Shown in pieces: positions 1-6,260 of a stretch of DNA of 7,812 nucleotides. The position numbers were made by a program, and so were the translations under genes. The DNA lies in the IMG/VR virus record IMGVR_UViG_2681813227_000024. One strand, given 5' to 3'. Source of the stretch: a virus (taxonomy: Duplodnaviria > Heunggongvirae > Uroviricota > Caudoviricetes). The notes below the pieces were generated by a model. The model made no database searches, was not told where the DNA came from, and saw only the letters and a list, made by a program, of their open reading frames with translations. Positions within the stretch are counted from its first letter, which is position 1, and each line of letters begins with the position of its first letter.

Positions 1-135
1 ATGGTGCATTACGAAGTAGTTCAGTATTTGATGGATTGTTGCGGTATCACTTACAGCCAAGCTGTACAGGCTCTACGCAGCAACGACTGGGATCTCTGGC
101 AGGCAGAAGCCGCTATATGCAGCAACAAGATGTGA
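1..135 (+). CDS. ydaG: YdaG-like small Rac prophage protein (44 aa), function unknown
   Basis: ATG at 1, TGA at 133-135. Translates to MVHYEVVQYLMDCCGITYSQAVQALRSNDWDLWQAEAAICSNKM, which matches my memory of 44-aa K-12 YdaG in length and sequence pattern. Too short for the ORF track. The gene starts at the window edge, so an upstream in-frame start cannot be excluded. Confidence 0.6.
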   Translation: MVHYEVVQYLMDCCGITYSQAVQALRSNDWDLWQAEAAICSNKM

Positions 136-145
136 GATTCGCAAA

Positions 146-298
146 ATGCAAAAAATCGACCTCGGCAACAACGAATCCCTAGTGTGTGGCGTGTTCCCCA
201 ACCAGGATGGAACGTTCACCGCCATGACGTATACCAAAAGCAAAACATTTAAAACTGAAACAGGCGCACGTCGCTGGCTTGCCAAAAATACCAGCTAA
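146..298 (+). CDS. ydaF: YdaF-like small Rac prophage protein (50 aa), function unknown
   Basis: ATG 146-148 is the first start in an open frame ending TAA 296-298. Translates to MQKIDLGNNESLVCGVFPNQDGTFTAMTYTKSKTFKTETGARRWLAKNTS. It lies 10 nt after the ydaG stop in the same orientation, consistent with the ydaG-ydaF pair of Rac. No strong Shine-Dalgarno is seen. Not in the ORF track (<60 aa). Confidence 0.55.
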   Translation: MQKIDLGNNESLVCGVFPNQDGTFTAMTYTKSKTFKTETGARRWLAKNTS

Positions 299-496
299 TC
301 CATTTATTGGATTAATTCAATATTCTCGCTGTAGAGGTATAGCCGAGGCCACCAAAGCCCGGAGGTGGTGAAATAAAACCGGGCATAACACGAAGGCGCA
401 TTTCCGGTATCCATAAAGAGTCGGTCTTGTCTGTCAAATTTAAATGGTGGGAGTGCGCCTCCGGTTGTGAATAACAACACTGCTGTGTGTAGTCTT

Positions 497-543
497 GGCG
501 GCATCAGTTTTTTCTTGAAGTTCGACTGATGTCCGCCCTTTTT
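497..543 (+). terminator. Terminator-like hairpin: ~11-bp GC-rich stem with 1-nt bulge, 18-nt loop, then C + T5
   Basis: 5' arm ggcggcatcag (497-507) pairs with ctgatgtccgcc (526-537), with t532 bulged. It is followed by c + ttttt (538-543). The loop is long, so the efficiency is uncertain. The ATG of a 26-codon ORF (529-609) lies inside the 3' arm. Confidence 0.3.
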
Positions 544-715
544 AAAGTGAAAACACCTGGAGGCACCAGGCACCGCATCAACAAAGTTCACTTCGGTGAT
601 GAAAGGTGAGAGAAAATGTTGAATGTAGCTATTGAAAACCAGAACGGGTGGAATTATAGTGCACCTGCACCTTATAAAACGGGTGCCGGGCGTGGAAACC
701 CGATGATGATTACCG

Positions 716-748
716 CGCATAACCGCGCTCAGGCGGTTTTTTTATGCG
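716..748 (+). terminator. Intrinsic-terminator-like palindrome: GC stem + T7 tract, nested inside a longer 7-bp outer complement
   Basis: ccgc (723-726) pairs with gcgg (733-736) around loop gctcag; with the flanking aa/tt this gives a 6-bp stem followed by ttttttt (737-743). The outer arms cgcataa (716-722) and ttatgcg (742-748) are perfectly complementary. A U-tract follows the stem only on the + strand. It lies inside the 5' part of track ORF 616..1464. Confidence 0.4.
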
Positions 749-912
749 TAATGCACAGCCACATTCAGATTATGGTGGGGCGTGCAGGGCAGCCGCAAAG
801 CTGGCCGGTTTCGGTAGTCGCCGGTATTTCCACCCCTGTACGTCTCACCACCCTTATGGTCGTGGAAAACCTTGGTGGTGAGTTATTTAAACTGACTATC
901 GAGGCTGTCATT

Positions 913-1464
913 ATGACTACTATCCCTACCCTTTCTCACCCTGACGTAACCATCGAAAACGGTCGCGCTGTAACTACATCCATTGCGATCGCAGAGTTTT
1001 TTGGCAAGCAACATCATCATGTTGTCCAAAAAATAGAATCCCTCGAATGCTCTGAATATTTTTTAACCAGCAACTTTTCGCGGGTTAAATTCGAACATCG
1101 CGGCAATTCCTATAATGCCTACCAGATCACCAAAAACGGCTTCGTTTTCCTGGTGATGGGCTTCACTGGCAAAAAAGCCGCTGCATTCAAAGAGGCCTAC
1201 ATCGCTGAGTTCGACCGCATGGAAGCAGAACTACGCCAGAATAATACCACTCCCACAAACAAAATCATTCCGGGCGATGGGCGCACTCTGGTTGTTCGCT
1301 TCGACAAATTCGGCAACGTCGAATTCACTGAAACCGTTCCTGATGACGCTCTCGTCTGTACCCTAGACACTTTCCGCCTTTATCTGGAGAAACAGGGCTG
1401 GACTCTTGTAAACCGAAGCGCAATTAAAAACATGACCGTCGAGCAGTTGTTGAGTATTAAATAG
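913..1464 (+). CDS. Phage regulatory protein, Rha family (Phage_pRha-type N-terminal domain); start uncertain (alternative ATG at 616 gives 282 aa)
   Basis: The segment GRAVTTSIAIAEFFGKQHHHVVQKIESL...YQITKNGFVFLVMGFTGKKAAAFKEAYIAEFDRMEAELRQ fits the conserved pRha pattern (VTTS..IAE.FGK.H..V...I..L ... G...L.MGFTGK.A..FK..YI..F..ME). That domain is normally N-terminal, which favours ATG 913 (GAGG 901-904, 8-nt spacer), giving 183 aa. However, the frame is open back to ATG 616 (AGGTGA 604-609) with coding-like composition, so 616..1464 cannot be excluded. Confidence 0.6.
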   Translation: MTTIPTLSHPDVTIENGRAVTTSIAIAEFFGKQHHHVVQKIESLECSEYFLTSNFSRVKFEHRGNSYNAYQITKNGFVFLVMGFTGKKAAAFKEAYIAEFDRMEAELRQNNTTPTNKIIPGDGRTLVVRFDKFGNVEFTETVPDDALVCTLDTFRLYLEKQGWTLVNRSAIKNMTVEQLLSIK

Positions 1465-1510
1465 TTTTCTGGAATTTTCTTAATACGACAAATTTATTAA
1501 GGAGATAATT

Positions 1511-1732
1511 ATGATTGCTCATCACTTCGGAACCGATGAAATACCACGCCAGTGCGTGACTCCTGGCGATTATGTTCTTCATGAAGGCCGGACATATATT
1601 GCCTCGGCAAACAATATTAAAAAGCGAAAACTTTATATTCGTAGCCTAACTACAAAAACATGCATTACTGACTGCATGATTAAAGTCTTCCTCGGTCGTG
1701 ATGGTTTACCTGTAAAGGCGGAGTCATGGTGA
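1511..1732 (+). CDS. kilR: KilR, Rac prophage killing protein (cell-division inhibitor), 73 aa
   Basis: Track ORF translation [73 protein letters not shown] matches K-12 KilR as I recall it, in sequence and length. Strong Shine-Dalgarno AAGGAG at 1498-1503. Confidence 0.9.
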
Positions 1733-2353: not shown

Positions 2354-5026
2354 ATGAGCACAAAACCACTCTTCCTTTTACGGAAAGCGAAAAAATCATC
2401 CGGTGAGCCTGACGTCGTCCTGTGGGCAAGCGACGATTTTGAATCAACCTGTGCCACTCTGGACTACCTGATCGTTAAGTCAGGTAAAAAACTGAGCAAC
2501 TATTTTAAAGCTGTTGCCACGAATTTTCCTGTCGTTAATGACCTGCCCCCTGAAGGTGAGATCGATTTTACCTGGAGTGAACGCTATCAACTCAGCAAAG
2601 ACTCCATGACCTGGGAACTAAAACCGGGAGCAGCACCAGACGACGTTCACCACCAGGATAATGCTCAGGAAACCAAAGAACTGGCGGGAGGCCTGGAAGA
2701 AAACGCGCAGGCAGACGCCCACGGGGATTGCCAGGATTGCGAAGTCTCTGTAGCCACTTTGCGGTTCACACAGCGTCTTCTGCACATTTTTACGTATGCG
2801 GCCGGGGATCGGAAATACCTGCATCATGCCACCCGTAAACAACGCGAACACATTACCGCTCTTGAGATGGATCAGGAAAACAGCTATGTCCAGAATCTGC
2901 TGTTGGCCATACGCGGCATGGCAGAACCGACAACTCTGGATAATGCCGCCCTGCTCCGCCTGACTGATGCAATTAAGGCAGTTTTCTCTATCACGAAAAA
3001 ACATCAGCCCTATGAATTTAAGAATTTCATTTCAGCCTGGCTGGACACCGAACACATTGATCGCGGTCTTCTAACAAAAGAATGGCGAAAAGGGAATCGT
3101 GTTTCACGCATCACTCGCACAGATTCCGGTGCTAATGCAGGCGGCGGGAACCTTACCGATCGCGGCGAAGGTTTCGTTCATGATCAGGCGTCGCTGGCCC
3201 GCGACGTAGCCACTGGCATTCTGGCCCGTTCAATGGACGTGGACATCTATAACCTTCATCCGGCACACGCTAAACGCATTGAGGAAATTATCGCTGAAAA
3301 TAAACCGCCCTTTTCTGTTTTCCGCGACAAATTCATCACCATGCCTGGCGGGCTGGATTATTCCCGCGCCATCGTGGTTGCGTCCGTGAAAGAAGCACCA
3401 ATTGGGATCGAGGTCATCCCCGCGCACGTCACTGAATATCTGAACAAAGTACTGACTGAAACTGATCATGCCAACCCTGATCCGGAAATCGTGGATATTG
3501 CCTGCGGTCGTTCCTCTGCCCCGATGCCGCAGCGTGTAACAGAAGAAGAAAAACAGGATGATGAAGAAAAACCGCAACCATATTGCGCAATGGCAGATGA
3601 ACAGGCAACGGCTGAAACAGTGGAACCGGATGCAACTGAACATCATCAGGACACGCAGCCGCTGGATGCTCAGTCACAGGTAAATTCTGTTGATGAAAAA
3701 TATCAGAAACTGCGGGCAGAACTCCATGAAACACGGAAAAACATTCCGCCCAAAAATCCTGTCGATGCAGACAAATTACTGGCTGCTTCGCGTGGTGAGT
3801 TCGTTGAAGGGATTAGCGACCCGAACGATCCGAAATGGGTAAAGGGGATCCAGACTCGCGACTCTGTGTACCAGAACCAGCCAGAAACGGAACAAAACAC
3901 GCCAGAAACTGTAAAAACCAGCCCGGATGTGAAACAACCTGAACCAGTAGTGCAACAGAAACCGGAAATAGTCTGCAATGCCTGCGGTCAGACTGGCGGG
4001 GATAACTGCCCTGACTGTGGTGCGGTGATGGGCGACGCAACGTATCAGGAAACCTTTAATGAAGAAAATCTGGATGAATCTCAGGAAAAAGAGCCGGAGG
4101 AAATGGAAGGCCCTGAACATCCGCACAATGAGAATGCTGGCAGCGATCTGCATCGCGATTGCAGTGATGAAACTGGCGAAGTCGCAGATCCCGTAATCGC
4201 AGGAGACATAGAGCCTGGTATTTATTACGGAATTTCGAATGAGAATTACCACGCGGGTCCCGGTGTCAGTAAGTCTCAGCTCGACGACATTGCTGATACT
4301 CCGGCGCTGTATTTGTGGCGTAAAAATGCCCCTGTGGACACCACAAAGACAAAAACGCTCGATTTAGGAACCGCTTTCCACTGCCGTGTACTTGAACCGG
4401 AAGAATTCAGTAACCGCTTTATCGTAGCACCTGAATTTAACCGCCGTACAAACGCCGGAAAAGAAGAAGAGAAAGCGTTTCTGATGGAATGCGCAAGCAC
4501 AGGAAAAACGGTTATCACTGCCGAAGAAGGCCGGAAAATTGAACTCATGTATCAGAGCGTTATGGCTTTGCCGCTGGGTCAATGGCTTGTGGAAAGCGCC
4601 GGACACGCTGAATCATCAATTTACTGGGAAGATCCGGAAACAGGAATTTTGTGTCGGTGCCGTCCGGACAAAATTATTCCTGAATTTCACTGGATCATGG
4701 ACGTGAAAACCACAGCGGATATTCAACGATTCAAAACGGCTTATTACGACTACCGCTATCACGTTCAGGATGCATTCTACAGTGACGGTTATGAAGCACA
4801 GTTTGGTGTGCTGCCAACTTTCGTTTTTCTGGTTGCCAGCACAACTGTTGAATGCGGACGTTACCCGATTGAGATTTTCATGATGGGCGAAGAAGCAAAA
4901 CTGGCAGGCCAGCAGGAATATCACCGCAATCTGAGGACCCTGGCTGACTGCCTCAATACCGATGAATGGCCAGCTATTAAGACGTTATCACTGCCCCGCT
5001 GGGCTAAGGAATATGCAAATGACTAA
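2354..5026 (+). CDS. recE: RecE, exodeoxyribonuclease VIII (5'-3' dsDNA exonuclease of the RecET recombination system), 890 aa
   Basis: The N-terminus [26 protein letters not shown] and the C-terminal third ([24 protein letters not shown] ... [25 protein letters not shown] ... [13 protein letters not shown]) match RecE as I recall it, including a PD-(D/E)xK-type nuclease motif (RPD...MDVKT). The protein also carries a central acidic low-complexity region and a C-x2-C-x7-C-x2-C motif (nt 3974-4018). It sits directly upstream of recT with overlapping stop/start. Confidence 0.95.
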
Positions 5027-5872: not shown

Positions 5873-6079
5873 ATGACAAAAACTTTGAGATATGACGATG
5901 TTAAACCATGTCCGTTTTGTGGTTGTCCATCAGTAACGGTGAAAGACATTTCATGATATTACCGGGCAAAATGCAACGGATGCGAATCCCGAACTGGCTA
6001 TGGTGGAAGTGAAAAAGAAGCGCTCGAAAGATGGGATAAACGAACCACTGAAAATATTAATGGAGGCGTTCATGTATAA
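5873..6079 (+). pseudogene. ralR: ralR (lar) restriction-alleviation / type I toxin gene interrupted by an in-frame TGA at 5954-5956
   Basis: ATG 5873 (the K-12-equivalent start is TTG 5885) reads MTKTLRYDDVKPCPFCGCPSVTVKDIS, then TGA, then continues in the same frame as YYRAKCNGCESRTGYGGSEKEALERWDKRTTENINGGVHV to TAA 6077-6079. The two halves together form a CPFCGC...CNGC zinc-ribbon-like motif and a 64-68 aa product like K-12 RalR as I recall it. The downstream half has no start codon of its own. Confidence 0.6.
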
Positions 6080-6260
6080 AATTACCGCTACAATTGAAAA
6101 GGAAGGTGGCACTCCTACTAACTGGACAAGATATTCAAAATCTAAACTAACGAAATCAGAATGCGAAAAAATGCTCTCAGGTAAAAAAGAAGCAGGCGTT
6201 TCCAGAGAGCAGAAAGTAAAACTGATAAATTTTAATTGCGAGAAACTTCAGTCCTCGTGA
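6072..6260 (+). CDS. ydaC: YdaC-like small Rac prophage protein (62 aa), function unknown
   Basis: ATG 6072 with GGAGG at 6062-6066 (5-nt spacer) gives MYKITATIEKEGGTPTNWTRYSKSKLTKSECEKMLSGKKEAGVSREQKVKLINFNCEKLQSS. It overlaps the ralR stop (ATGTATAA) and sits in the position of ydaC in K-12. The track start at 6000 lies inside ralR and lacks a Shine-Dalgarno. Identity with K-12 YdaC is not verified. Confidence 0.55.
   Translation: MYKITATIEKEGGTPTNWTRYSKSKLTKSECEKMLSGKKEAGVSREQKVKLINFNCEKLQSS

Follow-up and report, generated by a model that had tools for sequence, protein, structure and literature searches.

A P4 CI/P1 c4-type RNA module as the probable control region of a Rha gene in a Rac-like prophage

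We examined a 7,812-nucleotide (nt) stretch of the IMG/VR record IMGVR_UViG_2681813227_000024 (Caudoviricetes), hereafter the window, centring on a gene for a Rha-family regulator and on the frame that extends it upstream. The plus strand carries, in order, ydaG, ydaF (DUF1391), a 600-nt gap, an open reading frame (ORF) at 616–1464, kilR, ydaE, racC, recE, recT, ralR with RalA, xis and int, and the whole window is a single arm of a Rac-like prophage. An initial annotation, made by reading the sequence without database searches, had placed a Rha domain after a methionine codon at 913 and remarked that its frame stays open upstream to ATG 616, which it does: the ORF at 616–1464 (plus strand) encodes 282 amino acids (aa) and shares its frame with ATG 913. 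This long form is also the current RefSeq call, which lists no non-coding RNA features, and the PGAP annotation of the Rha protein (WP_000935601.1, 849 nt). Both starts have a Shine–Dalgarno (SD) sequence of their own, as had been observed: AGGTGAG at 604–610 precedes ATG 616 and is partly conserved in close relatives (AGGTAAG, AGGAAAG, AGGTAGAG), and GAGG at 901–904 precedes ATG 913. The hand count of G-rich, T-poor first codon positions in the extension (616–912) was borne out at 34% G and 12% T. Likewise, a guess of roughly 1% for the chance of such an open frame lies close to the 0.66% of 20,000 mononucleotide shuffles in which the 99-codon frame stayed open; the other two frames of 616–912 hold 7 and 6 stops.

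The downstream part of the ORF (913–1464, plus strand) corresponds to the short, 183-aa form of a Rha-family regulator or antirepressor-like protein. The Pfam search that had been proposed as a check returned PF09669 (Phage_pRha) with an E-value of 4.7e-26 and 91.6 bits (cut-off 29.9), covering positions 1–90 of the 91-position profile and spanning aa 120–203 of the long product. Counted from Met913 this is aa 21–104, so the domain does lie near the N terminus. The same segment matches the PHROG Rha-like regulator and anti-repressor families, and its C-terminal 80 residues matched no Pfam family. Set against family PF09669, 913–1464 has the Rha domain in full and where it usually lies, near the N terminus, whereas the annotated N-terminal 99 residues fall outside the protein family proper.

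RNA elements upstream of the Rha start

The extension contains the parts of a known type of RNA control module, all on the plus strand. A candidate sigma-70 promoter (TTGAAA, 17 nt, TATAGT; 10 of 12 consensus positions) lies at 632–660, with its −35 box 16 nt downstream of ATG 616 and a predicted transcription start at about 667. Its position matches those of P4 PLE (also TATAGT) and of the Gifsy-1 isrK promoter (alignment A3), and since the Gifsy-1 orf45 AUG at +107 maps to ATG 772, that alignment points to a start at about 666. From there, an IsrK/P4 SeqA-like small RNA occupies 667–743 (Rfam RF01394, 62.7 bits against a gathering threshold of 50, E = 6e-12), with hairpins at 667–686 and 687–702. 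The palindrome that had been likened to a terminator was recovered by a terminator scan as an intrinsic terminator hairpin at 721–738 followed by a T run to about 745. Further downstream, a C4/P4 CI-like antisense RNA spans 768–855 (RF01695, 73.1 bits against 45, E = 2.9e-13) and folds into a basal stem of 17 base pairs (bp) with two hairpins. The loop of the second hairpin (a′, 812–820) is complementary to two targets, a1 (TGATTACCG, 707–715, G–U pairs included) and a2 (TGACTATCGAGG, 893–904), and a single-stranded junction (b′, TTTCCAC, 827–833) is complementary to GTGGAAA both in the loop of IsrK-like hairpin 2 (b1, 692–698) and at a P4 seqC-like site downstream of C4 (b2, 862–868). Target a2 overlaps the GAGG of ATG 913. 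The 5′ strand of the C4 stem includes an invariant ATG (772–774), in frame with ATG 616 and ATG 913 and homologous to the first AUG of Gifsy-1 orf45. A weaker Rfam match, to the c4 a1/b1 target family, covers 654–706.

Comparison of 560–930 with 50,697 phage records gave matches that all start at window position 665–668, that is, at the RNA 5′ end and not at ATG 616. The isrK and C4 pair recurs at the same spacing in 13 other phage loci. Elements that carry it at this fixed spacing are mEp460, ST64B, cdtI, phiP27, P88, TL-2011b, PA2, several Stx phages and Gifsy-1, and P4 has both elements about 107 nt apart. A pattern scan of IMG/VR, pooled with phage loci, provided 96 distinct modules, and tests of covariation drew on 27–96 of these. 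Their general layout places a1 between IsrK hairpin 2 and the terminator, b1 in the hairpin 2 loop, b2 about 10 nt past C4 and a2 just 5′ of the downstream start codon. The recognition sequences come in 37 a-loop and 18 b variants, and partners change together. In the a′–a2 helix 91% of alignment cells were paired and 8 of 12 pairs were compensatory (slid controls, 35–45%), with corresponding values of 95% and 7 of 9 for a′–a1 and 97% and 6 of 7 for b′–b1; over the three helices, pairing fell to 32–51% when one partner was slid by one to three columns. The C4 basal stem was fully paired (100%) with four compensatory pairs, and four of the five pairs in C4 hairpin 1 were compensatory. The terminator helix was only 65% paired in the alignment because two terminator variants are misaligned there, the hairpin itself being present. 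An exact 7-mer complement of b′ was found downstream in 99% of cognate but 8.5% of non-cognate pairs (96 modules), a contrast that holds for exact 7-mers, as a truncated probe with G–U pairs allowed gave no discrimination.

Whatever the cargo gene, a2 abuts or overlaps the downstream SD, at 5–11 nt from the ATG in most of the 96 modules and in all of the Rha-linked ones; cargo genes include Rha, the ORF6N protein AnrP, a P4 epsilon-like derepression protein and Kil. In the window, Met913 and its GAGG are nearly invariant and align with the start of P4 Kil (MATTLTPSHPEF in P4, MTTIPTLSHPDV here). This near-invariance, the position of a2 at the SD and the alignment with Kil together identify ATG 913 as the candidate RNA-controlled Rha start and, by analogy, the 183-aa protein from Met913 as the presumptive regulated product. 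Overall, we consider it likely that 616–912 is the control region of the Rha gene, a P4 CI/P1 c4-type RNA immunity module lying within an eta-like open frame.

Several additional features of these modules were recorded. In the minimum-free-energy fold of 667–930 (z = −4.5), a local hairpin with CCUUGG (870–875) additionally sequesters the SD of ATG 913 in cis, and GGTGGTGAG at 874–882 is the exact complement of the C4 3′ stem strand CTCACCACC; these features suggest alternative structures resembling those of Gifsy-1. A 45-aa ORF at 744–881 was considered as a counterpart of Gifsy-1 orf45 and rejected, as the +107 AUG maps to ATG 772 in another frame, and ATG 856 was dismissed as a start beside b2 for want of conservation, ATAAGG or GAG standing at that position in other members. 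In locus L052 (9289–11266, minus strand) and in loci L036, L037, L101 and L121, two or three units are arrayed in tandem with a period of 656–659 nt; each unit consists of an isrK–C4 module and a short Rha-like gene with its own a/b specificity, and the long ORFs of 219–220 aa overlap one another by ATGA. In the P2-like phage P88 (locus L007), the module precedes an epsilon-like 'derepression protein' and a 206-aa alternative frame is open across both. An annotated hypothetical protein of the same phage, SF19_gp13 (1508–1696, minus strand), is antisense to the isrK/C4 module and is probably a spurious annotation.

Codon-level diversity and the open frame

Pairwise diversity at codon positions 1, 2 and 3 was flat over 667–912 (0.306, 0.314 and 0.299), as compared with 0.349, 0.262 and 0.533 over 913–1230. 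Across nine pairs, the ratio of non-synonymous to synonymous substitution rates (dN/dS) was about 0.9 in 667–912 (0.49–2.07), the same as in the two off-frames, and 0.06–0.27 in the Rha part (913–1230). The absence of amino-acid constraint in 667–912, and the clear constraint with coding-type substitutions from 913 on, are robust.

The extension nevertheless matches a protein family: PF10554 (Phage_ASH) covers aa 14–109 of the long product (E = 2.6e-16; 60.4–66.8 bits against a gathering threshold of 26). The same profile matches the module translation in every long ORF examined and, at every locus, falls on the isrK and C4 RNAs. No purifying selection on amino acids was found over the Phage_ASH segment, where codon-position diversity is flat and dN/dS resembles that of the off-frames, and searches of the extension alone against Pfam and PHROG gave only module translations (Phage_ASH, phrog_995 and phrog_821). 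On this evidence, what the Phage_ASH profile picks up is a conserved RNA translated in one frame. Conserved extensions colinear with 616–912, which the initial annotation had set against its own account, are, as these matches show, widespread among homologues, yet what they conserve is RNA and an open frame, not amino acids. In P4, the profile finds Eta and the old 'cI' ORF (locus L016, 8168–8812, minus strand) but not epsilon (PF25738), so that as a protein marker it can mislead. A survey of P4-like satellites took PF10554 as an epsilon/Ash marker (PMC8628076), and in a paper on Stx phages the function of the Ash domain is given as unknown (PMC8951638). In the P4 RefSeq record, a 137-aa 'cI transcriptional repressor' coding sequence is still annotated over the SeqA–CI RNA region.

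The frame, as distinct from the peptide, is preserved. Among 51 distinct Rha-linked modules, chosen solely by the context of the downstream start, this frame was free of stops, while the other two contained 115 and 204, which go back to 25 and 31 distinct events. Forty-nine modules measured 254 or 257 nt, and the remaining two, at 253 nt, have a 1-nt deletion just before the ATG; the four indels within the module in alignment A2 were multiples of three or were compensated within 27 nt. In mEp460, ST64B and cdtI, the frame runs 120 codons further 5′ and overlaps the preceding gene by ATGA. That additional stretch (1141–1500 of mEp460, locus L004, and its equivalents in ST64B and cdtI) encodes an odd Cys/Leu-rich sequence that matches no Pfam family, and it may be a further translate-through stretch and not a domain. 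When all module types were taken together, the frame was open in 61 of 91 and closed in 30, the latter including Gifsy-1-like modules with a TGA before the conserved ATG and a short orf45 whose end carries an ATGA overlap. The open frame is a robust observation; as to its role, we infer that selection keeps it open and that the sequence of the peptide is irrelevant.

Position of the cassette relative to sieB and kilR

Alignment with the K-12 locus (blastn; locus L002) delimited a 907-bp segment at 594–1500 (plus strand) without a K-12 counterpart, comprising the leader RNA module, the Rha gene and 36 nt of 3′ flank. On its two sides, 554–593 corresponds to 3339–3378 and 1501–2400 to 3387–4286 of that locus, and the cassette ends 8 bp short of the kilR ribosome-binding region. 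As the initial annotation stated, the sieB gene of K-12 Rac lies between ydaF and kilR and runs on the opposite strand. Its proposal that Rha had been swapped for sieB holds insofar as both lie between ydaF and kilR, but they sit at different points, separated by a 230-nt DicF-like block: window positions 1–277 and 324–551 match the K-12 DNA that flanks sieB on either side, and the cassette lies by kilR. Judged from these alignments, the Rha cassette is an insertion beside kilR and not an allelic replacement of sieB. A tblastn search of the window with K-12 SieB returned only three short, non-significant segments, the best of which (E = 0.52, 14 aa) falls inside recE. The further idea that this is an accessory position of the kind that carries immunity functions fits a cassette that, from its sequence, appears to encode an RNA-based immunity module. 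Contrary to the statement that no minus-strand membrane-protein ORF is present, a 138-aa minus-strand ORF does exist at 304–720, though without a Pfam match; we considered it as a substitute for sieB and rejected it, as it shows no similarity to SieB and overlies a non-coding block that is unannotated in K-12. Among complete Escherichia coli genomes, 64 of 5,426 carry the cassette at a query coverage of at least 80%.

The surrounding DNA showed other features. A DicF-like element at 484–538 (plus strand; 42.8 bits, below the gathering threshold of 48) lies inside the non-coding block at 324–551. K-12 Rac has a counterpart of the 230-nt block between sieB and kilR (95% identity), without any annotation, and the element there reaches 39.1 bits. 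The DicF-like element precedes the cell-division inhibitor gene kilR, as dicF precedes dicB in Qin. At 551/554 the window has a small deletion in non-coding DNA 3′ of the DicF-like element: about 112 nt are missing that K-12 Rac (L002, 3230–3338) and the otherwise 99.9% identical strain 13E0780 (locus L001, 3254–3366) both retain. The RalA antitoxin small RNA, a known feature of Rac, is intact at 6078–6256 (minus strand; 218 bits, full length), antisense to ralR.

Related systems, a proposed mechanism and competing explanations

In P1 and P4, the mature RNA is made by RNase P/PNPase processing of a leader transcript. The P4 ORF at 8168–8812 (minus strand) is eta, which encodes 197–199 aa from an MMM start, has kil as its last 65 codons and contains the SeqA element and CI RNA. 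P4 and the window share the order of internal promoter (of constitutive type, with TATAGT in each), SeqA/IsrK-like RNA, C4/CI RNA, downstream target, and SD and ATG of the regulated gene. In both, a long ORF begins 5′ of the promoter and shares its frame with a shorter regulated gene that follows the downstream target; the long frame at 616–1464 is colinear with eta/kil as the counterpart of eta, and Phage_ASH matches both long ORFs over the RNA region. The two differ in cargo (the 65-aa Kil in P4, a 183-aa Rha-domain protein here), in about 84 extra nt between SeqA and CI in P4, in specificity (b is GTGAGAA in P4 and GTGGAAA here), in the type of element (a satellite as opposed to a Rac-like lambdoid prophage) and in the upstream part of the long ORF, which here comprises 17 codons uncoupled to an alpA-like gene. 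The Rho-dependent terminator timm of P4 sits within kil (X51522, 8365–8209) and has no sequence signature that would allow a call here. According to the summary of Forti 1999 given in PMC10111431, CI RNA lies inside eta, Kil is a truncated form translated on read-through, and full-length Eta is translated only from the upstream late promoter, its translation preventing termination. The same account describes the immunity factor encoded in this region as an RNA and mentions RNA processing (PMC10111431).

In the Gifsy-1 isrK–orf45–anrP system, isrK transcripts read through into orf45–anrP (Hershko-Shalev 2016, PMC4825925), a conserved AUG at +107 (ATG 772 in the window) initiates orf45, whose translation is needed for anrP expression, and the processed RNA STnc1160 comes from the C4-like region (PMC4825925). 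The DNA of the two modules aligns throughout, and both have IsrK with its terminator, followed by a C4-like RNA (the STnc1160 region in Gifsy-1) with a conserved internal ATG, sites of the a2/b2 type and a cargo of antirepressor type. However, orf45 of Gifsy-1 is a separate 45-codon ORF with an AUGA overlap into anrP and a TGA just before its ATG, whereas here the ATG 772 frame is open from 616 and continues without a stop into Rha. The cargoes also differ, with ORF6N (PF10543) in AnrP and Rha (PF09669) here and weak C-terminal similarity only (BLASTP E = 0.014), as do the locations, the Gifsy-1 module following antQ and this one lying in the early-left arm before kilR. In P1 and P7, ant expression is blocked by c4 RNA acting around the ribosome-binding site, and heteroimmunity has its basis in the same RNA (PMC12197685). 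As in the immI regions of those phages, the C4 RNA here comes from the same transcript as its target, a′ and b′ are each matched by one target upstream and one downstream (sequence variants giving heteroimmunity there), and the target overlaps the ribosome-binding site of the first downstream gene, a2 at 893–904 including GAGG 901–904. Unlike immI, the window has no icd between the RNA and the antirepressor-type gene (57 nt and no gene separate the C4 3′ end from ATG 913), the cargo is of Rha type instead of P1 Ant, and the upstream targets lie in a terminated IsrK/SeqA-type small RNA.

Sequence and comparison supply the parts of the module, their order and pairings, an a2 site that overlaps the SD, an ATG 616 that lies 5′ of the promoter, and a frame kept open without peptide constraint; the steps that follow are modelled on P1, P4 and Gifsy-1. 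In a lysogen, transcripts from the 632–660 promoter would mostly end at the IsrK terminator, and the C4-like RNA would be processed out of those that read through. By analogy, this RNA would pair with b2 and a2, occlude the SD of ATG 913 and favour termination, keeping Rha off, and would confer a specificity-dependent immunity that holds incoming relatives of the same a/b specificity in check; pairing with the IsrK/SeqA-type RNA may modulate this C4 lock. As ATG 616 lies 5′ of the internal promoter, the long frame would be present only on transcripts arriving from upstream, from the ydaG–ydaF early-left operon. On the model of P4 eta/kil, ribosomes entering such transcripts at ATG 616 after derepression would cross the terminator and the C4 region, disrupt their structures and shield the RNA from Rho, so that the lock would be overridden, polarity prevented and Rha (possibly as a longer isoform), kilR and recET expressed. 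ATG 772 may act as a third, IsrK-activated entry, as in Gifsy-1. We put forward, tentatively and as something short of probable, that in a large clade of lambdoid prophages this frame is a 'translate-only' ORF, kept solely so that ribosomes can override the terminator, the C4 lock and downstream polarity.

Three readings of the extension had been offered initially: that Rha is an unusually long protein, that it is fused to what remains of an upstream gene, or that the extension is a structured leader with a coincidental frame. The structured leader stands, on the strength of the Rfam RNAs and their covarying pairings, and the other elements fare less well. That the 282-aa product is a true two-domain protein, with an N-terminal 'Ash' domain fused to Rha and a functional extension peptide, might seem natural given the Phage_ASH match, PHROG families built on long forms, annotation of the long ORF by PGAP and in many phage records, and a frame open in two-thirds of the modules (61 of 91). 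We nonetheless hold it to be highly improbable: codon periodicity is missing and dN/dS is near 1 over 667–912 while the Rha part is constrained, the segments that vary coincide exactly with the sites of RNA pairing and change in step with their partners, and homology begins at the RNA 5′ end. Moreover, the Gifsy-1 module works without this ORF (PMC4825925), in TL-2011b and 29 further modules the frame is closed, in PA2 it stops at the 3′ end of C4, and the immunity factor of P4 from this region is an RNA in the account of PMC10111431. Still less credible, to the point of being almost negligible, is an upstream gene remnant fused to Rha by deletion. Strain N17 does have an annotated 5′ pseudogene fragment of DicB just upstream, and the cassette sits at a recombination-prone junction; but the DicB fragment ends 5′ of ATG 616, outside the ORF, the part of the ORF outside the RNA module is just 51 nt long and holds the promoter, and Phage_ASH is the sole protein family that matches the extension.

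A structured leader whose frame is open by pure coincidence, with no need for any ribosome to cross it, would account for the RNA elements, which are real and whose conservation alone would propagate any frame that happened to be open; closure of the frame in one-third of modules and a close relative without the upstream start, a Stx2a phage (locus L009), are also in keeping with it. It is made improbable, however, by the total lack of stops in the Rha-linked clade, in spite of hypervariable loops, against the 25 and 31 events of the other frames, by module indels that all preserve the frame, by long ORFs that repeatedly overlap the preceding gene by ATGA, and by the experimental precedent of P4 eta, where translation of this frame matters according to PMC10111431. 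Control of the Gifsy-1 type, in which IsrK would open the structure in trans and ribosomes start at ATG 772 to yield a 230-aa isoform or coupling to ATG 913, is compatible with our main account of 616–912 as an RNA control region in an eta-like frame. That ATG is invariant and maps to the Gifsy-1 orf45 AUG, which is translated and required for anrP expression (PMC4825925), and in some Gifsy-1-like modules (loci L019 and L075) a TGA immediately precedes the ATG and the cargo gene starts within an ATGA overlap. Yet ATG 772 has no recognizable SD and lies within the 17-bp C4 stem, which might explain its invariance by itself, and the window has no separate orf45, the 45-aa ORF at 744–881 being in a different frame; we regard this route as rather unlikely, though less so than coincidence.

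Several points weigh against the main account. The stops in 30 of 91 modules make the open frame a feature of a clade and not a requirement of the RNA system, and the comparison of stop counts treats modules as independent and is not corrected for phylogeny. Only 17 codons lie 5′ of the promoter here, against about 120, coupled to the upstream gene, in mEp460-type loci; the SD of ATG 616 is not strictly conserved; and in the Stx2a phage a stop stands immediately 5′ of the module and the upstream start is absent, so that such a start is dispensable in some members. In addition, we infer, for this locus, the transcription start, C4 processing, repression at ATG 913 and anti-termination by translation from ATG 616.

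The module belongs to an already known type, the P4 CI/P1 c4 class, to which this locus adds one example. For annotation, the start of the Rha gene should be corrected to 913, and two RNA genes are missing from the record; likewise, the 'Ash domain of unknown function' that has been reported for phages, Stx phages among them, is on this evidence an RNA immunity module in translated form. If the frame is indeed a translate-only ORF, the Pfam and PHROG 'Ash domain' and hundreds of annotated 'long Rha' proteins would be artefacts of translating a conserved RNA, and the nested in-frame starts at 616, 772 and 913 could provide differently regulated routes to Rha expression. The case exemplifies selection on translatability, in which an ORF stays open while its peptide drifts, and would extend the logic of P4 eta/kil to Rac-like and Stx-type prophages. 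For the prophage itself, the cassette probably places an antirepressor-type protein, next to kilR and recET, under a second layer of control that is based on RNA and comes in many interchangeable specificities.

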